Of a stretch of DNA of 64,000 nt, positions 19,917 to 39,968 are shown piece after piece. Position numbers and translations under genes: made by a program. Below the pieces are notes generated by a model. The model made no database searches, was not told the DNA's origin, and worked only from the letters and a program-made list of their open reading frames with translations. This DNA is from Desulfuromonadales bacterium (lineage in GTDB: Bacteria; Desulfobacterota; Desulfuromonadia; Desulfuromonadales; JAGXHI01): positions 7,647 through 71,646 of the forward strand of contig JAGXHI010000042.1 of NCBI GenBank assembly GCA_024636295.1, read 5' to 3'. The stretch's first letter is position 1. Each line of letters opens with the position of its first letter.

Positions 19917-20094
19917 GTTGAAAACCGGTTGAATCGTTGAATCGTTGAATCGTTGAATCGTTGAATCGTTGAATCGTTGAATCGTTGAATCGTTGAATTG
20001 TTGAACCGTTGAATTGTTGAACCGTTGAAAACCGGTTGAACCGATTCAACGATTCAACGCGCGAAGCGCATTCAACGGTTCAACTGGTTTTTTT
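19917..20094. repeat. left repeat block: 8-bp microsatellite (GTTGAATC)x8 plus 4 degenerate copies, then direct-repeat copy DR-L
   Basis: The 8-mer array spans 19928-20023. DR-L spans 20016-20094: GTTGAACCGTTGAAAACCGGTTGAACCGATTCAACGATTCAACGCGCGAAGCGCATTCAACGGTTCAACTGGTTTTTTT. Confidence 0.95.
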
Positions 20095-20470: not shown

Positions 20471-20483
20471 TTTGTTCCCCCCT

Positions 20484-20670
20484 GTTGAACTGTTGAAAAC
20501 CGGTTGAAACCAATTCAACGATTCAACGCGCGAAGCGCAGTCAACGGTTCAACTGGTTTTTTTCGATTCAACGATTCAAAGCGCGAAGCGCATTCAACGG
20601 TTCAACTGGTTTTTTTACGATTCAACGATTCAAAGCGCGAAGCGCATTCAACGGTTCAACCGATTTTCAA
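20484..20670. repeat. right repeat block: direct-repeat copy DR-R, then two more 53/54-bp units
   Basis: DR-R (20484-20563) is about 94 percent identical to DR-L. Units start at 20513, 20566 and 20620. Each unit reads ATTCAACGATTCAA(C/A)GCGCGAAGCGCA(T/G)TCAACGGTTCAAC. The first two units then continue TGGTTTTTTT, while the third ends CGATTTTCAAC just before the carbamoyltransferase stop. Confidence 0.95.
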
Positions 20671-20672
20671 CA

Positions 20673-22532
20673 TTAATCAAGTTCATACTTTTGCCCCCAA
20701 TACTCTCGATCCTCGTGGCGGTGTTGCTCTTCTTTCCTGAACAGGTAATCGCCCATGACCAGGACGTCCATCTCAGTCCCCATGAAGCAGCGGTAGGCGT
20801 GCTCCGGGGTGCAGACGACGGGTTCGCCCCGTACGTTGAAGCTGGTATTGACGATGACGCCATAGCCGGTCCGTTGTCGGAAGGTGTCGATCAACTGCCA
20901 GTAACGCGGGTTCACTGCCTTATTGACGGTCTGAATACGCGCGGAATAATCGATATGGGTAACCGCCGGGACATCGGAACGTTGGTAGTAGAGGCGCGTG
21001 TAAAGTGGCTGTGAACAGTGATCTTCGGGAAGTGCATTGCATCTCTCTTCTTGCACTCGGGCGACCAGCATCATATAGGGGGACGGCCGGTCCAGCTGGA
21101 AATATTCAGTGCAGCATTCCTCGAGGACCGATGGGGCGAAGGGACGAAATCCTTCCCGGTATTTTATCTTCAGATTGAGCTTCTTCTGCATATCGGCACG
21201 TCGCGCATCGCCCAGAATACTCCTGTTGCCCAACGCCCGCGGCCCAAATTCCATGCGGCCCTGGAACCAGCCCACCACCTGACCCGCATCGAGAAGATCG
21301 GCCACCTCCTCACAGAGTATTGCAAAATCATCATAATAATGGCAAGAGGCCTGAAAACGCCGGGCAACCTTGCCTATCTCCTTGGCACTGTACTCCGGAC
21401 CCAGCAGGACGCCCTTCATCCTGTCGCCCTGGACCGGCTGTCTCGGCTTATCGAGAGAGATGTGCCAGCCCGCCAGGGCCGCACCAAGCGCACCACCGGC
21501 ATCGCCGCTGGCGGGCTGAATCCAGAGATCCTTGAACAGTCCTGACCGCAGCAGTTTGCCATTGGCCACACAATTCAGGGCCACCCCTCCTGCCATCACC
21601 AGATAATCGCTTTTGGTCAGCTGTCTGGCTGTTTTTGCCAGCCGGAGAACAACCTCTTCGGTGACTTCCTGAATCGCCAACGCAAGATTCATCGTGTTCT
21701 GGTCAGGGTCCGCTTCCGATTTCCGGCGCCGCACACCAAAAAGCCTCTCCCAGGCAGCATCGTTGCACATGGTGAGACCCGTGGCGTAATTGAAGTAGTC
21801 CATATTCAGCAGGAAAGAGCCATCCTCGCGAAGGTCGATCATTTCGGCAAGAATCAGGCTCTTCCATTTTTCAACCTGCGTCGAACCGGGAATTCCATAA
21901 GGTGCCAGGCCCATCAGCTTGTATTCGCCGCTGTTGACCTTGAATCCGCAGTAATAGGTAAACGCCGAATAGAGCAGCCCCAAAGAATGGGGGAAATCGA
22001 GTTCCCGCAAGATCTCGATCCGATTTCCATTGCCGGCGCCGATTGTACAGGTCGCCCACTCACCGACCCCGTCAACGGTCAGGATGGCTGCTTCGGAGAA
22101 GGGGGAGGGATAGAAGGCGCTTGCAGCATGAGAGAGATGGTGTTCAGGAAACAGCAGTTCGGGGTTGGCGCAACCGAGCTTTTCAAACTCCTTGCGCAAC
22201 ATCTGTCGCATGAAAAGTTTTTCCTTGACCCACACGGGGATGGCCGACAGGAAGCTTTTCAGCCCCCGAGGCGCGAAACTGTGATAGGTCTCGAGCAGCC
22301 TCTCGAATTTCAGGTACGGCTTGTCATAAAAGACGACATGTGAGATGTCGGAGAACTGCAGACCCGCTTCATCCAGAACATAGCTGATCGCATGATGCGG
22401 GAAGGCAGAATCCTGCTTTTTACGGGTAAACCTCTCCTCCTGGGCGGCGGCGACGATGTCCCCACCGATGATCAGGGCCGCTGCACTGTCGTGATAAAAT
22501 GCCGAGATACCCAGGATCGCCTCCGGCATCAT
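20673..22532 (-). CDS. carbamoyltransferase (NodU/CmcH/SxtI family)
   Basis: 619 aa starting ILGISAFYHDSAAALI..AAQEERFTRKK. The C-terminal part has VNTSFNVRGEPVV. Confidence 0.93.
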   Translation of the reverse strand: MMPEAILGISAFYHDSAAALIIGGDIVAAAQEERFTRKKQDSAFPHHAISYVLDEAGLQFSDISHVVFYDKPYLKFERLLETYHSFAPRGLKSFLSAIPVWVKEKLFMRQMLRKEFEKLGCANPELLFPEHHLSHAASAFYPSPFSEAAILTVDGVGEWATCTIGAGNGNRIEILRELDFPHSLGLLYSAFTYYCGFKVNSGEYKLMGLAPYGIPGSTQVEKWKSLILAEMIDLREDGSFLLNMDYFNYATGLTMCNDAAWERLFGVRRRKSEADPDQNTMNLALAIQEVTEEVVLRLAKTARQLTKSDYLVMAGGVALNCVANGKLLRSGLFKDLWIQPASGDAGGALGAALAGWHISLDKPRQPVQGDRMKGVLLGPEYSAKEIGKVARRFQASCHYYDDFAILCEEVADLLDAGQVVGWFQGRMEFGPRALGNRSILGDARRADMQKKLNLKIKYREGFRPFAPSVLEECCTEYFQLDRPSPYMMLVARVQEERCNALPEDHCSQPLYTRLYYQRSDVPAVTHIDYSARIQTVNKAVNPRYWQLIDTFRQRTGYGVIVNTSFNVRGEPVVCTPEHAYRCFMGTEMDVLVMGDYLFRKEEQHRHEDREYWGQKYELD

Positions 22533-27882: not shown

Positions 27883-30213
27883 CTACGGCCTGGTCAGACC
27901 AGTGGTGTCCCCATCGAGATCCGTGATGGCGTCGAACATGACCTGGCGAGCAAACCGGCTGTTGTGTGCCCATGAGCCACCATGACCGTGCACGCCATTC
28001 GGGCCGTGAACAGCGCCGTCTTCGTACGTGAAGATTTTCCAGGCGGTGGCCGCCTTGGCAGCCGCGAGGCTCGGACCGACATTAGTACGGCCTTCGAGAT
28101 AGGTGGCCAGCATTTCCAGCCGCGTAGCATCGTCGGCAGCGCCTTGCAGATCATCGATGAAGGTCTGCAGCGGGGGATACAGGTCGGCCGTTCCATCAGC
28201 CGTCAGGTAGACCCCCAAAAGGGTTTCGAGGAGACGTACGCTGAAGGCCTCGGTGCGAGCCTGGAGGGCAGAGGCATCGGCAAAGGCACCTGCCTGGTGG
28301 CAACCTGCGCAGTCGGCGCTGGTGACCATCTTGTTCTGGACGACGTTGTTGCCGTCGGTGTCGTGAACATTGTGGCAAGTGACGCAGCCGAAATCGGCAG
28401 CCGCGGTTCCCGCTACAGCGCCGCCGCCATGCACGAACTTGCCGGCATAGGTACCGTCATAGGTGGGTACCATGCCGGACTCGTCACCAAAGAGAGTGGC
28501 GAAGCCCGGAGCATAGTGCAGGTACGCGAATGTACGATTCTCCGTTCCAACATAGACTTCGTCGATATCGTCCCCATTCAGGTCGTCTTCGTATTCGTTG
28601 ACCAGGAGGGCTTCATCCGCGGGGGTCGGAGCCGGGGTGCGTCCTTTGTGGCATTCGAAACAGATCTGGTTCACACCGAGATCGGCAACGTCAACAACAA
28701 CTCCACTGTTGAAGGCAAACTCATGCCCTTCGGCAAAGGCTCGCACCGCGGTGGGATCTCCGAGAACCGGATTTCCTTCTGCATCCTGTCCAACCTGCTC
28801 CAGCTCATGGCAGGTGCGGCAGGAGATGGGATCGGTAGTGCGGGCAGTAGGCATCGATCCGCCGCGTACCCAGGTTACGAAGGATTCCTGGCCGTTATGG
28901 CAGGGCTGGCAGCCGTGACCCAGGGCATCGCCGAGGTAATTGGTGTGGAAATCGCCAATGCCTTCGGCGAAGCTGGCGGCCTGTGCGGAACCGCCTTCAC
29001 CTTCCACCTTGTTGGCGCTGTGCGGATCGTGGCAGACGGTACAGGCGTCCGGGTTGGCGGCGTTGATGTTGTAGCCGGCCACCTCAACGTCGGTCACAGC
29101 AACAGGATCGATCTGAGTTTCGTCTTCTTCAACGGCGGCGATACGGCCGACGACCTGTCCGGCAAAGTGGGTGTCGGAGAAATTGCGACCGCCGTGCGGG
29201 GTGTTGTCATGGTAGAAAACCTGGGTCTCATAGACCACGCGAGGGGTCTCGCGCAGGGTCCCGTCCGCATTGTAGAACGGGGTCAGTTCGACTTCCTTGA
29301 AGGTCGAGGTGTCGGCATCCACAAGGCTGGTGGCGCTGTAAGCGTCGGTCAGCTCGTACTCGTACAGCCCCTCATGCTCCAAGGAGGGAGTTGGATTCAG
29401 ATCGATCATGTGGCAGCTGGTGCAGAGATTGAACTCGGCCGAGTAGACGACGACGCCGTCGGCATCAACGGTGTCTTCCGTACGCAGATCGGCTTTGTGC
29501 GGGTCATGGCAGGTGTTGCACTGCATGTCCAGGAGGCCTGTTTCTGGCTCCATCGACCAGAAAGGAACGGTATCGATGGAGTATTCTTCAAACAACTGCT
29601 GCACGCTGATCTTGCGGCCCGACTCGATGTTGAAGACGCCGCCCTGATGGCTGTGACAGGCTGCGCAGAACCCGCCGCCGTGGTCGCTGTTGCCATGGCC
29701 GCTGGCGGCATAGCGGGAGTAGATCTGCTCATTGAACGGATGATGGTCCAGGTGAGCCAGTTCACCCTCGCCATTGTGGCACTGGCCGCATACAGCGGCA
29801 GTGGGCGCCGTATTGGCGACTTCTTCCTGCAGAGGCAGATTGGCGTGATTGCTGCCGGCGCCATGGCAGTCTTCACAACCGACAACCGTGCCCGTGGGGG
29901 TGACACCGAAGGCCGGCCCGATCTCGTTCATGGCGCCGGAGGGGTTGTGACAAGCGGTCGCACAGCTGGCGATCGAATGACTCGAGTTCATCGCATGCTT
30001 GCTATCCACCCATTCCGTAGCCGCCGTACTCGTCCCGTGGCAGGTCGAACAAGCCAGCAGGCCTGCTTGCTCCGCGGCGGGCAGCTGGAAATCCTGGCCG
30101 GGCTGGCCATCGATTCCGTCGTCTCCATCATCGCCCGAACATCCGGCCAATGCCAGCGTACACGCCAGCAGACCGAAAACGAGCAAACGAAGCCATTTCC
30201 TTCCTTCTCTCAT
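27883..30213 (-). CDS. multihaem c-type cytochrome lipoprotein, 12 CxxCH plus 1 CxxxCH
   Basis: Lipobox LALAGC. I counted 12 CxxCH motifs (CSTCH, CEDCH, CGQCH, CAACH, CNTCH, CTSCH, CTVCH, CQPCH, CRTCH, CFECH, CVTCH, CAGCH) plus CATACH. A short GDDGDDGIDGQPGQD tract follows the lipid Cys. Confidence 0.92.
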   Translation of the reverse strand: MREGRKWLRLLVFGLLACTLALAGCSGDDGDDGIDGQPGQDFQLPAAEQAGLLACSTCHGTSTAATEWVDSKHAMNSSHSIASCATACHNPSGAMNEIGPAFGVTPTGTVVGCEDCHGAGSNHANLPLQEEVANTAPTAAVCGQCHNGEGELAHLDHHPFNEQIYSRYAASGHGNSDHGGGFCAACHSHQGGVFNIESGRKISVQQLFEEYSIDTVPFWSMEPETGLLDMQCNTCHDPHKADLRTEDTVDADGVVVYSAEFNLCTSCHMIDLNPTPSLEHEGLYEYELTDAYSATSLVDADTSTFKEVELTPFYNADGTLRETPRVVYETQVFYHDNTPHGGRNFSDTHFAGQVVGRIAAVEEDETQIDPVAVTDVEVAGYNINAANPDACTVCHDPHSANKVEGEGGSAQAASFAEGIGDFHTNYLGDALGHGCQPCHNGQESFVTWVRGGSMPTARTTDPISCRTCHELEQVGQDAEGNPVLGDPTAVRAFAEGHEFAFNSGVVVDVADLGVNQICFECHKGRTPAPTPADEALLVNEYEDDLNGDDIDEVYVGTENRTFAYLHYAPGFATLFGDESGMVPTYDGTYAGKFVHGGGAVAGTAAADFGCVTCHNVHDTDGNNVVQNKMVTSADCAGCHQAGAFADASALQARTEAFSVRLLETLLGVYLTADGTADLYPPLQTFIDDLQGAADDATRLEMLATYLEGRTNVGPSLAAAKAATAWKIFTYEDGAVHGPNGVHGHGGSWAHNSRFARQVMFDAITDLDGDTTGLTRP

Positions 30214-34446: not shown

Positions 34447-34518
34447 GACGCAAAAAAGGCGAACCCCGAAAGGCCCGCCTTATCATTCGAGAGGCGAGGT
34501 GGGCCGAAGCCCACCTCG
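34447..34518 (-). terminator. two hairpins after the decahaem gene; the second is followed by a T-run
   Basis: The minus strand has CGAGGTGGGC-TTCG-GCCCACCTCG, then AAGGCGGGCCTTTCGGGGTTCGCCTTTTTT. Confidence 0.7.
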
Positions 34519-34529
34519 GATTACTTCCC

Positions 34530-36239
34530 CTATTCAAAGAATGACATGATTTTTTCGATCACGGTGTCAAGAACCCCTTCGCCATCCTCGAGCAGGTAAC
34601 CGAAGGCCTTGGTGTGCTGGTTGAACGAAGTCAGCTCTCCTGCCTGATCCTCGTTGATCCATTCGGCCCGGTGACACGCGCCGCAGGCTCTTGAACCAGG
34701 CCCGGTGACGTAGCTCGGCACGGTCCCGATATTCCTGTCGATCGTATCATTGGGATCCGATGCCGAAAGGATGCCGGACAGCGACCTGGACTGATCCGGC
34801 ACATTGAAGGTTCCCGCGACGTGGCAGGACTCGCAGTTGGTAATTCCATGGGTGGGATACGGGAAGTTGATGTGGTGCTCGTATTCCAGAGCTTCCACGG
34901 GATCGGTGAAATCGATGTCACCGAAGTCAAAATACTGCATGGAATGGATCGAATGCGCATAGGAATCGATGGACCTGGACTGCATCTCCAGGTGGGATCC
35001 GCCGCTCTTGGTGATGTGGCACAGCCGGCAGACGACGATATTCCCGCCCCTGTCGGGCGAATGGAAGGTCGTTGAGAGCGCGTCGTGACAGTTGTTGCAT
35101 CCCTCTTCGACTTTCACGATGTCGCCATAGAACCCATCATCGAAAGCATTGGCGCCCAGATCAAAGGTGCGGGAGGGAGCGACAAGGGCGATGACCTCTC
35201 CGTCCGCATTCTGCAGTTCGGGCATGACCGCGATTTCGGCGCGCCTGACGGTTCCGTCGGCCATCATGTCCGCCCACATGGAGAGATCCGCCGTCACTTC
35301 CCAGCTGCCATTGGCGGCGGATACGGTCGTGAACCTCGGATTGACGGTTTCACCATCTACGGGAAATTCCAGCAGCCTGTTCCGTTCAGCGTCACGTTCG
35401 TGAGGACCGACGATGTAATCCTTGGTGTCGTAGCCGTACAGTCCGACCAACACGGTGGGTACGATATTCACGGCATCGAGAGCACCCGCCGTTCCGGTCG
35501 CACTGAAGTTGATGGTCAGGATGTTGCCCGCCAGGGACGCTCCATCGATGGAGACGCTGATCAGGTCGGAATACCGGGTGCCCTGGGCATCGGCGTAGAT
35601 GATCGGGTCATAGCCGTTGTGAAAATCACTGAACTGGTGGCAGTCACTGCACACCATATCCGGCGTATGAAAGCCGGGAAGAAGGGTTTCCAGAGCAAGG
35701 CCGGTGGTATCCACCGTGAAATTGCCATCGCCATCCGGCAGATCCGTTCCACCCGTTATTGGATGGCAACTCTGGCAGGTCTGGTACACGAAGTTCTCGT
35801 CCGCCAGGATGATATCCAGTTTGCCTTCGTGGCAGGTGGCGCAGTTGGCCATGGACTGGGGATAGGGGAATTCCATGGCGTGCGAGCGGTGCACGTCCTC
35901 CATGACGCTGGTGTTGTACTGGTATTGCGCGAAGTCGGCGCCCAGTTCCGTCTCCAGCCAGGCGACCGCTGCATCCTCGTCTACTTCCGCCCTTGCCAGA
36001 AATTCGGCAGCTACTTGGGGATTATCCACCAGAAGCTGCCATTCGAAATGGCCCCCTGCTCCATTGTCCAGATGACAGGCCTTACAGGTATAAAAATCGG
36101 TTGCAGGGTCGTTTTCAACCTGGGCCAGGATGTTGCCGTGCTTGAGATAAGGCACGCTGTGGCATTTTTCGCAGCCTGCGTTCGTTGCGGCGGGGACATA
36201 ATCAACGCCATTGGGTCCTGTCTCGAGCAGGGCCGCATT
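34530..36239 (-). CDS. decahaem cytochrome, C-terminal 569 codons (frame 2 of a frameshifted gene)
   Basis: 9 CxxCH motifs in two clusters (5 and 4), separated by a beta-rich segment of about 160 aa. The track ORF has no signal peptide and overlaps the upstream ORF by 146 nt in another frame. Confidence 0.8.
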   Translation of the reverse strand, partial: NAALLETGPNGVDYVPAATNAGCEKCHSVPYLKHGNILAQVENDPATDFYTCKACHLDNGAGGHFEWQLLVDNPQVAAEFLARAEVDEDAAVAWLETELGADFAQYQYNTSVMEDVHRSHAMEFPYPQSMANCATCHEGKLDIILADENFVYQTCQSCHPITGGTDLPDGDGNFTVDTTGLALETLLPGFHTPDMVCSDCHQFSDFHNGYDPIIYADAQGTRYSDLISVSIDGASLAGNILTINFSATGTAGALDAVNIVPTVLVGLYGYDTKDYIVGPHERDAERNRLLEFPVDGETVNPRFTTVSAANGSWEVTADLSMWADMMADGTVRRAEIAVMPELQNADGEVIALVAPSRTFDLGANAFDDGFYGDIVKVEEGCNNCHDALSTTFHSPDRGGNIVVCRLCHITKSGGSHLEMQSRSIDSYAHSIHSMQYFDFGDIDFTDPVEALEYEHHINFPYPTHGITNCESCHVAGTFNVPDQSRSLSGILSASDPNDTIDRNIGTVPSYVTGPGSRACGACHRAEWINEDQAGELTSFNQHTKAFGYLLEDGEGVLDTVIEKIMSFFE

Positions 36240-36894
36240 AGGGGAATTGCACCTGCCTGACGCGAGAGGGAGGCAGTGTGTCGACCAGCCCGTCGTAGCC
36301 ATATACGACGACAAGGCCATCCTGGGCGTCGAGATTGCCATTGGCGCTCTGGGCGTTGGTGCTCGTGCATCCGCCGGCGCCATTGTCGCTCAGAGTCCCC
36401 TTTATGGCCATCCGTGCGGCGGGATCCATCACGAAACTTTCACCGTCGTACCCGACCCAGTAAATGTTGAGGTTCTGGACCTGGGTGCAATCAAAAGCTG
36501 CGCCATTCTTGGTCATATCGAAGGTGACGATGTCATTGGCGCTGTCGTTCGTGTAGTTCACATTCGACACTTCAATCACGCCCGCCTGATTCAATTGATC
36601 ATAGAACGCCTGGTGTTCATCGCCGGCGCCGGCATGGCAGATTGAACAGGATTCAGGCTCGACAGCCGCAGCGGTCGGACCTTCCCCACCTTCAGGGCCT
36701 TCAGGGCCTTCAGGGCCTTCAGGGCCTTCAGGGCCTTCAGGGCCTTCAGGGCCTGTGGGTCCGGCAGGTCCTTCAGGTCCGGCGACGCCATCACGCCCGT
36801 CATTCCCATCGTCACCTTCACAACCGGTGAAAACAAGGGAAAAAACCAAGAGCATGGCCAATACGGCATACCGCAAAAAGCGACTCCTCTTCAT
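36238..36894 (-). CDS. decahaem cytochrome, N-terminal 218 codons (signal/lipobox, collagen-like tract, first haem, beta-rich domain)
   Basis: The ATG at 36894 lies 6 nt after AAAGGAG. Lipobox LVFTGC, 16 Gly-X-Y triplets and CSICH are present. It stops at a TAA directly after a C4 run. Confidence 0.8.
   Translation of the reverse strand: MKRSRFLRYAVLAMLLVFSLVFTGCEGDDGNDGRDGVAGPEGPAGPTGPEGPEGPEGPEGPEGPEGPEGGEGPTAAAVEPESCSICHAGAGDEHQAFYDQLNQAGVIEVSNVNYTNDSANDIVTFDMTKNGAAFDCTQVQNLNIYWVGYDGESFVMDPAARMAIKGTLSDNGAGGCTSTNAQSANGNLDAQDGLVVVYGYDGLVDTLPPSRVRQVQFP
36689..36751. repeat. 9-bp tandem repeat (CCTTCAGGG)x7, with degenerate copies on both sides
   Basis: Read directly from the sequence. It encodes (GPE)n on the minus strand. 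Confidence 0.97.
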
Positions 36895-37552
36895 CTCCAT
36901 CTCCTTTGTTGCCTCCACCACCCAAATGTTTTGGCTGCACGAATTTGAATCATGAACGATTCACACCTGATATTTACAAATCACCCCCTTTCAAATTCAT
37001 AAGGTGAACCGGGCTTGTTTGAGACTTTTTAAATGTGCGGACTTGAATAAACCAAATAAAATGAATAGCATCAAATGTACCAAATGTTTAAGACCTTAAA
37101 TGAACATGCCGAATCGATGGAAGGATTTGGATTCGCTCTGATTTTCTGGGGCGGAAACTCCGGGAAGCAGTCAATTAGGTGTTTTGATGGAGAGTTCTTT
37201 CAGTTAAATAGCTTACTGTCTGCGTCAAATGACTGAACTCTGCTCCAACCGATATCGAAGGCTACATTTGTTCTCTGATTCCCCCTCAGGACAGGAATTT
37301 TGACCCCTACTTTTTCGGAATCCGGTTCATGAATCTCGCAAATCAATTCGTCAGCACCCAACGGCATCGCCCCTCCCGGGCGAGGGGCGGCCAAGGGATG
37401 ACTTGCTGGTTTATGTCCGAAAACCGGAAGTATTTTCGTTTCGGATGGATACGGGTAAAGCGGAAAAACGAAGTGGGGGGAAATTTGAAAAGAGCGATGA
37501 GACCGTGAAGGATTTTACCATGGCAAAACATTGTGCATGAAACAGCTGTCGC

Positions 37553-39583: not shown

Positions 39584-39628
39584 GGGAACATCTGAAGAAA
39601 ATGAGTCAGGAATTTGAATGGATTTGAT

Positions 39629-39705
39629 CTCGGGTCTCGGGTCTCGGGTCTCGGGTCTCGGGTCTCGGGTCTCGGACCTCGGACCTTGGACCTTGGACCT
39701 TGGAC
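39629..39705. repeat. 7-bp microsatellite: (CTCGGGT)x6, (CTCGGAC)x2, (CTTGGAC)x3
   Basis: Read directly from the sequence. It lies 46-122 nt upstream of the uvrD start. Confidence 0.97.
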
Positions 39706-39968
39706 CGGGAAGGGATAGCATAGCGACACGGCATAAGGCAAGTTACAAAAATAGTCAGGCGGGGAAGAAAAATAACTTATTGATTCTCAGCGCGAAATTC
39801 TATATCTTGCGCGGCATGGCAAGAATCCTCGTACTCATCATCGGCATCATCTGGGCCTCCCTGCTCCTCATCTCCTGGGGCGGCGCCGACAACCTTTCCC
39901 GCCCTGCGGCTGAAATCCGCCTGAGTCGCTCATCCTGATCCCTCCGGCCTCATTTTCCGGCGGATCGT

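Follow-up and report, generated by a model that had tools for sequence, protein, structure and literature searches.

The subject of this study is a lipoprotein cytochrome gene on the minus strand of a 64,000-nucleotide stretch of DNA from a Desulfuromonadales bacterium (assembly GCA_024636295.1, contig JAGXHI010000042.1, positions 7,647 to 71,646; hereafter the window), and in particular the run of Gly-X-Y triplets encoded directly after its lipid-anchor cysteine. From sequence comparison, we argue that this tract is probably the membrane-proximal tether of a lipid-anchored decahaem cytochrome of the OmcA/MtrC/UndA type, built as a bacterial collagen-like segment and acting as a spacer. A central question of extracellular electron transfer is how electrons get over the final nanometres that separate the cell envelope from a mineral, an electrode or a partner cell. 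If the terminal cytochrome has a conserved stalk whose length can be selected, this would give that question a concrete structural answer, in which the number of triplets would predict the distance between head and membrane.

The likely start codon of the cytochrome gene lies 6 nt beyond an AGGAG motif, and the first open reading frame (ORF1) encodes, as read from its motifs, the signal peptide of a bacterial lipoprotein: an N-terminal MKRSRF, a hydrophobic core and F-T-G-C25, a lipobox that we take to be compatible with the PROSITE pattern PS51257 (Table 1). The tether follows as GDD GND GRD GVA GPE GPA GPT (GPE)7 GGE GPT, and is separated from the first haem motif by AAAVEPES. Seven of the 16 triplets are perfect copies of the coding-strand unit GGCCCTGAA, and Tandem Repeats Finder scored the array at 7.3 copies of period 9 with 100% matches (unit CCTTCAGGG). 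An earlier, sequence-only reading of this DNA had reported the 16 uninterrupted triplets between lipobox and CSICH, the seven perfect 9-bp GPE units, and a five-triplet version on a neighbouring 12-haem lipoprotein. Each of these observations was reproduced, the last with 12 CXXCH motifs counted in the neighbour. The same reading had called the tract collagen-like, and by sequence criteria it is: the tract scored 31.1 bits against Pfam PF01391 (Collagen; gathering score 27.2, E 2e-07), Pro occupies X in 11 of the 16 triplets and Y in none, and a sequence search of the Protein Data Bank (PDB) with the tract matched collagen model peptides and BclA (1wck). Sixteen in-phase glycines cannot plausibly have arisen by chance. 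The tract carries a net charge of -12 per chain, and a single Arg is its sole basic residue. NCBIfam models for Scl and Lcl matched the window protein far below their cutoffs and, accordingly, it falls outside the Scl, Lcl and BclA families.

Table 1 Features of the window and of two homologous loci. Positions follow the numbering of the window unless a locus is named.
Feature	Position	Strand	Remarks
Lipoprotein cytochrome, ORF1	36921..36238	minus	likely start ATG 36894; protein begins MKRSRF; sequence reading
Signal peptide of the lipoprotein precursor, MKRSRFLRYAVLAMLLVFSLVFTG	36823..36894	minus	sequence reading
Lipobox cysteine Cys25, predicted lipid-attachment site	36820..36822	minus	LVFTGC; homologues align G-C or A-C lipoboxes here
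Collagen-like tether, 16 uninterrupted Gly-X-Y triplets	36673..36816	minus	one Glu between Cys25 and tract
Perfect 9-bp tandem repeat encoding (GPE)7	36689..36754	minus	Tandem Repeats Finder
First haem motif, CSICH	36634..36648	minus	9 residues beyond the last triplet; ES-C-x-x-CH nearly invariant in the family
Frameshift site, TAAT	36237..36240	minus	one-base insertion; creates TAA stop at 36240-36238
Rest of the cytochrome in the +1 frame	34530..36239	minus	9 CXXCH motifs; MtrC/MtrF-like domains (Pfam PF22113)
Terminator-like hairpin, 11 pairs then T run	34456..34481	minus	about 50 nt past the stop; consensus scan
Porin-cytochrome-like cluster	33596-27883		downstream of the cytochrome gene
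Neighbouring 12-haem lipoprotein gene	30213..27883	minus	12 CXXCH
Five-triplet tether of the 12-haem lipoprotein, GDD GDD GID GQP GQD	30091..30135	minus	after lipobox Cys-Ser
Cobalamin riboswitch	2426-2576	minus	Rfam RF00174, 87.4 bits
8-bp unit array (GTTGAATC, 12.8 copies) and 53-bp unit array (2.9 copies)	19928-20089 and 20482-20667		
Two adjacent perfect heptanucleotide arrays, TCTCGGG x6.9 and GGACCTT x4.7	39628-39706		
Six-haem lipoproteins, third cytochrome family with a tether	L005 6037-7170 and 7565-8650; L033 1709-2870	plus	loci of homologues

The part of the protein beyond the tether resembles the outer-surface cytochromes of metal-reducing bacteria. Its C-terminal part scored 68.6 bits against Pfam PF22113 (domains II/IV of MtrC/MtrF; gathering score 30), and the C-terminal fragment, which was the only part scored, reached 107 bits against TIGR03507 (OmcA/MtrC family), below the cutoff of 209.3. 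A profile of the cytochrome family matched MtrF and MtrC in the PDB, and homologues carry the name 'OmcA/MtrC family' in JGI annotation. The fold was examined on P0013, an intact homologue about 60% identical to the window protein. It comes from a Desulfuromonadales metagenome-assembled genome (MAG), and its N-terminus shares GCEGDDGNDG with the window protein. An AlphaFold2 model of P0013 (mean predicted local distance difference test score, pLDDT, 89; predicted template modelling score, pTM, 0.86) had UndA, MtrC and OmcA as its top Foldseek matches in the PDB (3ucp, 6qyc and 4lmh; E 1e-15 to 1e-12, probability 1.00, TM-score 0.45-0.58), and displays the four-domain fold in which two beta-barrels alternate with two multihaem domains. 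Because of the PF22113 match and the PDB matches of this model, we assign the head of the window protein, with the homologue standing in for it, to the outer-surface-type multihaem cytochromes of the MtrC/OmcA/UndA fold class.

We searched for homologues with the cytochrome body only, leaving the Gly-X-Y tract out of the query. The search returned 1156 homologues at about 57-62% identity, and a HMMER scan of 1.84 billion representatives added 354 more distant ones. Homologue loci lie in Anaerolineae, Caldilineae, Planctomycetota, Desulfuromonadales, Syntrophales, Nitrospirota, Bathyarchaeota, Thaumarchaeota and others; the nearest genome relative of the window gene is only 64% identical. Tethers were counted in 174 distinct complete N-termini of homologous OmcA/MtrC/UndA-type decahaem cytochromes. 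Runs of at least six triplets were present in 66 of the 102 members with a lipobox and in 6 of the 72 without one. These six exceptions comprise four archaeal proteins with an N-terminal membrane helix, one lipobox missed by the pattern and one truncated start. Where the signal peptide is a plain one (Planctomycetota, Caldilineaceae), there is no tether and the protein passes from the cleavage site straight to haem. Of the 66 lipobox members, 51 have the run beginning at most 2 residues from the Cys, and 68 of 69 tethers consist of a single uninterrupted run. Over all tracts the run ends a median of 11 amino acids before the first haem and makes up a median of 73% of the tether. Its length is 6-31 triplets (median 9.5) in the set with at least six, and 5-31 when shorter tracts are counted. 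Anchored members that lack Gly-X-Y carry linkers rich in Pro, Thr, Glu and Ala instead, with a median of 42 amino acids versus 44 for the Gly-X-Y type. A protein search with the N-terminal module alone, meant to detect it on lipoproteins other than cytochromes, gave 96 candidates and 2 weak matches, too few to be informative. The counts over N-termini identify the Gly-X-Y tether as a family trait of the membrane-anchored members and not a one-off. The sequence-only reading had held that its stalk would fall if homologues lacked the periodicity, which instead proved common; its proposal of a spacer agrees with the near confinement of the tract to anchored members and with the equal-length linkers that replace it elsewhere.

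The tether also extends to other cytochromes. Homologues of the neighbouring 12-haem lipoprotein have 4-14 triplets, two of them with a precomputed PF01391 annotation, and six-haem lipoproteins (about 360-390 amino acids) that adjoin the family gene in Anaerolineales MAGs have 9-13 triplets right after the lipobox. Identity of the cytochrome body is 54-64% among loci L001-L080, which come from Chloroflexota, Planctomycetota, Desulfuromonadales, Nitrospirota, Bathyarchaeota, Thaumarchaeota and Thermoplasmatota MAGs. This similarity across phyla suggests wide horizontal transfer, part of it possibly a product of contamination in binning. The type of N-terminal anchor and tether follows the host lineage and not the cytochrome body.

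The composition of the tracts is that of a bacterial collagen. Over 734 family triplets, Pro makes up 52% of X and 12% of Y positions; X is also Ala in 18%, and Y is Ala (33%), Thr (17%), Asp (12%), Glu (9%) or Gln (7%). Lys is rare, at 1.5% of X and 1.0% of Y. All tethers are net acidic, with a net charge per triplet of -0.75 in the window and a family median of -0.29. Authentic bacterial collagens have Pro at more than 30% of X and about 5% of Y positions (PMC3707005), and in sequence terms the asymmetry of the family tracts is the same.

We considered whether the tract could be a monomeric low-complexity linker, that is, a disordered or polyproline-II acidic tether whose Gly periodicity is a by-product of 9-bp amplification. 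The 7.3 perfect copies in the window are what such amplification would leave, AlphaFold2 gave the tether low confidence, and equally long Pro/Thr/Glu/Ala-rich linkers can functionally take the place of the tract; the lipoprotein cytochrome PgcA of Geobacter likewise uses (PT)n repeats (PMC5732950). However, tracts outside the window are not recent amplifications. Among 41 homologous genome loci with at least six triplets, the longest perfect 9-bp tandem has at most 3.4 copies, and synonymous diversity is high: locus L064 encodes ten GPA triplets in nine DNA versions, and across loci all four Gly codons are in use and identical amino-acid triplets are encoded in many ways. Gly nevertheless stays in register in 68 of 69 tethers, although X and Y are highly variable. 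Slippage alone is insufficient to account for this and, therefore, selection for Gly at every third residue has to be invoked. Because X, Y and the codons have become diverse with Gly still in register, the tracts point to purifying selection on Gly and to a periodicity that is old. We thus regard a monomeric low-complexity linker of this kind as rather unlikely. Within the spacer reading, the (GPE)7 of the window is best read from these comparisons as a recent 9-bp slippage expansion atop an older, diversified tether, whose remaining part consists of the first seven triplets and the eighth GPE, coded GGA CCT GAA. The contrast between the window and the 41 related loci, together with the 5-31 triplets found across the family, also fits the suggestion in the sequence-only reading that stalk length varies by slippage. 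Two scans of metagenomes with flank or repeat patterns of the window for other copy numbers gave no match, and exact look-ups of the source proteins turned up no contigs.

As assembled, the cytochrome gene is interrupted. ORF1 encodes a 218-amino-acid N-terminal part with 1 haem motif, the remaining 9 CXXCH motifs are encoded in the +1 frame, and so the window has no single polypeptide with the ten motifs found in intact homologues. The sequence-only reading had called the protein decahaem, which is right for the total of ten motifs but overlooked their division, 1 + 9, across the frameshift. At the break the window reads TTC CCC TAAT GCG GCC (36237-36246, minus strand), where homologues have [Y/F]-P-[F/Y]-A-A (YPF 103 times, YPY 19, FPY 7). 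A Tyr codon, TAT, with one added A appears from this alignment to account for the break exactly. A programmed +1 frameshift at CCC_UAA is unlikely: the homologues are single open reading frames and the conserved residue at the site is Tyr or Phe, whereas a +1 slip on CCC would yield Asn; Tyr is restored instead by removing one A from TAAT. The gene call of the source assembly is a 541-amino-acid fragment (P0001), indicating that the lesion sits in the deposited contig. Either the gene has recently become a pseudogene or the assembly is in error at this point. The homologous gene of a long-read Chloroflexia MAG (L011, 3300-4200) has a break at the same site, between YP and Y (AAA TAC CCT ATG, one C short), and an additional in-frame stop upstream. 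The break in L011 has the look of a homopolymer error; artefacts of this sort do occur here, which calls for caution in reading the window lesion.

If the cytochrome were a decaying pseudogene, the (GPE)7 might be junk that expanded neutrally under relaxed selection. This view draws on the frameshift with its in-frame TAA and on the perfect repeat of the window, which is exceptional in the family. The lesion is the only disabling one, however, and both halves of the gene are otherwise intact and align over 100% of their length with full-length homologues, at about 60% identity. Furthermore, the lesion could be an assembly error, given the break at the same site in L011, and the tether that underlies the repeat is ancestral and selected. 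Neutral expansion in a decaying gene is accordingly improbable in our judgement.

In the reading that we favour, in which the tract is a collagen-like spacer, the protein would be exported by Sec and lipidated at Cys25, steps inferred from the lipobox. Residues 26-74 would then form an extended, Pro-rich, strongly acidic segment of about 14 nm that holds the haem head off the anchoring membrane; 48 residues at 0.286 nm give 13.7 nm as a triple helix, the one conformation to which the roughly 13 nm of the sequence-only reading applies, and a stretched polyproline-II chain would have a similar length. Minerals, electrodes or partner cytochromes that lie beyond the surface layer could thereby come within reach of the head. 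It would project outward from the outer membrane in diderms, and from the cytoplasmic membrane across the wall or S-layer space in monoderm-like Chloroflexota and archaea. In some members, or in many, a triple helix may zip up from the co-anchored N-termini and so bundle three heads. In the window genome, slippage of the 9-bp unit would lately have lengthened the tether to (GPE)7.

Several points weigh against this reading. The association between lipobox and Gly-X-Y has a Fisher p of 8e-15, which overstates the evidence because the homologue counts are not phylogenetically independent. The lipobox was called by regular expression, and protein starts were those of gene callers. Surface exposure is inferred from homology only, plus the adjacent porin-cytochrome-like cluster at 33596-27883, and with the gene interrupted in the assembly the full protein may not be made here. 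In the AlphaFold2 monomer run the tether had a pLDDT below 50, which is uninformative on its conformation. Other points bear on the triple helix in particular. The charge of -12 with one basic residue argues, on composition, against a homotrimer of the window tract. Because Lys is rare in the family and the window tract has that one basic residue, interchain salt bridges look unlikely. The median family tract has only 9.5 triplets. Finally, since non-collagen linkers substitute for the tract, the comparison of relatives shows that trimerisation would not be essential to the head. The selected Gly periodicity and the bias of Pro to X nevertheless have no other well-established structural explanation, and from sequence we consider a triple helix plausible for the family, with the balance somewhat against it, and less so for the very acidic tract of the window.

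A stronger version, which takes up the trimerising helix of the sequence-only reading, holds that the stalk is obligately trimerising. Three lipid-anchored chains would wind into a rigid collagen triple helix of about 13.7 nm, and its main role would be to present a three-headed 'bouquet' of cytochromes, as in C1q, collectins or BclA. The strict and selected Gly periodicity, the bias of Pro to X as in proven bacterial collagens and the PF01391 match above threshold all speak for it, and N-termini co-anchored in one membrane plane would be expected to set the register of the chains. In addition, some relatives have candidate trimerising segments after the tract. Members of both the decahaem and the 12-haem families (N-termini of P0138, P0142, P0148, P0250, P0145, P0174, P0285, P0288 and L073) have a short Gly-X-Y run and then the motif G-(K)-SAYEIAV-x-NGF-x-GTE-x-EWL-x-SL. 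Its matches are PHROGs of phage tails and tail fibres (15437, 14726, 19976 and 25979; E 1e-10 to 1e-12), and tail fibres are trimers; the motif itself has no solved structure in the PDB and no Pfam model. Other relatives have coiled-coil-like segments after the tract, without a Pfam match. By contrast, Pfam and NCBIfam scans recognised no trimerisation domain in the window protein, where the charge would reach -36 per trimer; collagen peptides of uniformly acidic composition, (EOG)10 for example, are not known to form homotrimers at neutral pH. Bacteria lack hydroxyproline in their collagen-like tracts, and without it a family median of 9.5 triplets is marginal for stability. Close relatives swap the tract for non-collagen linkers, and we know of no description of the Shewanella proteins with 5-6 triplets as trimers. 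We therefore hold obligate trimerisation as a tentative possibility only. A separate observation concerns P0163, P0167 and P0169, in which a Cys-flanked acidic loop, C-WDLNENGVKDLPDEDLNGDGVVNVDD-C, follows the Gly-X-Y run; it resembles a calcium-binding repeat and has no Pfam match.

The acidity of the tethers raises the question of whether they bind a ligand or direct sorting. The acidic GDDGxDG and (GPE)n segments might bind cations or Fe/Mn oxides, or the acidic residues after the Cys might be a signal for surface export, as they are in Bacteroidota lipoproteins. The motif Cys-x-G-D-D-G-x-D-G stands directly after the anchor Cys in two unrelated cytochrome families of the window (30135-30091 and 36816-36796) and in deltaproteobacterial-type relatives of both, and it may be a sorting or processing signal distinct from the stalk proper. 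That every tether is net acidic also agrees with such roles, and the repeats of PgcA have been proposed to aid oxide binding (PMC5732950). However, the Chloroflexota and archaeal versions are mostly GPA, GPQ or GPT with little charge, and neither role needs the Gly periodicity or a length of 6-31 triplets. As an account of the tract as a whole, ligand binding or sorting is thus, on sequence grounds, quite unlikely, and we return to the spacer.

Among known systems, the closest by descent are OmcA, UndA and MtrC of Shewanella, which are lipobox lipoproteins of the same head fold class. Directly after a lipobox Cys-Gly, OmcA (PDB 4lmh; GSDGKDGEDGKPGVVGVN) reads GSD GKD GED GKP GVV GVN, UndA (3ucp; GSDGKDGEDGKPGPVGLD) reads GSD GKD GED GKP GPV GLD, and MtrC (7qth/4lm8; GSDGNNGNDGSDGGE) reads GSD GNN GND GSD GGE. 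By sequence, these 5-6 triplets are to be seen as a short form of the same tether, one that the sequence-only reading had missed and that, to our knowledge, has drawn no comment so far. They are poor in Pro; of the 16 triplets in the window protein, 11 have Pro at X. The window protein also differs from the Shewanella proteins in having a haem motif before domain I, shares only 12-15% structure-aligned identity with them and scores below the TIGR03507 cutoff.

Like BclA of Bacillus and Scl1/Scl2 of streptococci, the window protein combines Gly-X-Y with Pro at X and Thr, Gln, Ala or Glu at Y, in a stalk with a globular head. BclA and Scl1/Scl2 differ in having dedicated trimerising globular domains, longer tracts and an adhesin role, and they are anchored otherwise, in the basal layer of the exosporium or by LPXTG at the C-terminus. 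The length of the BclA filament follows its repeat number. Scavenger receptor A/MARCO, collagen XIII/XVII and Escherichia coli Lpp likewise join an N-terminal membrane anchor to a rod-like oligomerising spacer with a head or a distance-setting role. They are analogies and not homologues, and their trimers are proven and form via hydroxyproline or coiled coils.

On a Gram-negative envelope, the nearest parallel is Bucl8 of Burkholderia, an outer-membrane lipoprotein with an extracellular (GAS)n tract of 6-38 copies, depending on the isolate, that forms a triple helix by circular dichroism (CD) (PMC7682875). Both are collagen-like tracts with few distinct triplet types on an envelope lipoprotein. 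However, Bucl8 owes its trimer to a trimeric efflux-channel domain, on the C-terminal side of which its tract lies, whereas the window tract is N-terminal beside the lipid anchor and its cargo is a redox protein without a known trimeric domain. PgcA, an extracellular lipoprotein tri-haem cytochrome, has (PT)n repeats that are thought to help it reach or bind Fe(III) oxides, and the CD of its 41-kDa processed form revealed no unusual structure (PMC5732950). These repeats resemble the Pro/Thr/Glu/Ala-rich alternative tethers of the window cytochrome family but are PT dipeptides without Gly periodicity and lie between haem domains rather than only beside the anchor.

The sequence-only reading knew of no such architecture among multihaem cytochromes, and we found no published description of collagen-like tracts in them in the full-text literature, subscription journals being outside its coverage. 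PF01391 is already assigned to some of these cytochromes in public precomputed annotations, 10 of 120 listed homologues among them. Collagen-like stalks and lipoprotein tethers are known from prokaryotes; what is new here is the cargo and the position. In practical terms, the tract is a natural tunable spacer for the display of redox proteins on cells, and the short tether of Shewanella OmcA and MtrC offers an immediately tractable genetic system. If the triple helix is real, it implies trimeric cytochrome assemblies that have not been sought, and a redox enzyme joins the short list of cargo of prokaryotic collagens. The most far-reaching version, suggested by the sequences but in our view unlikely, is that extracellular and wall-spanning multihaem cytochromes of several phyla (among them Chloroflexota and Desulfuromonadales-type bacteria) and of archaea are three-headed assemblies on true triple-helical stalks. 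These would nucleate at the anchor and have a length, 5-31 triplets or about 4-27 nm, that slippage tunes to envelope thickness or mineral distance. If true, extracellular electron transfer would have an architectural principle that had gone unrecognised, and prokaryotic collagens would gain a new functional class.

The cytochrome gene, with a terminator-like hairpin after it, seems to be transcribed as a unit of its own; the conduit cluster lies downstream. The cluster contains a 404-amino-acid protein without a family match, a periplasmic-type multihaem protein and two lipoprotein cytochromes. A promoter scan of the cytochrome gene revealed no sigma-70-like site. A GEMM-type riboswitch was sought upstream of the gene and not found; the sole Rfam match in the window is a distant cobalamin riboswitch.

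Other tandem arrays lie elsewhere in the window. The 8-bp and 53-bp arrays flank a segment of about 400 bp just downstream of a gene that ends at 20673, and each 53-bp unit ends in a hairpin plus T-run. The two heptanucleotide arrays, with a unit length that is not a multiple of three, lie directly upstream of the likely start (MDLSFLNDQQ, about 39583) of a minus-strand gene for a UvrD/PcrA-like helicase.

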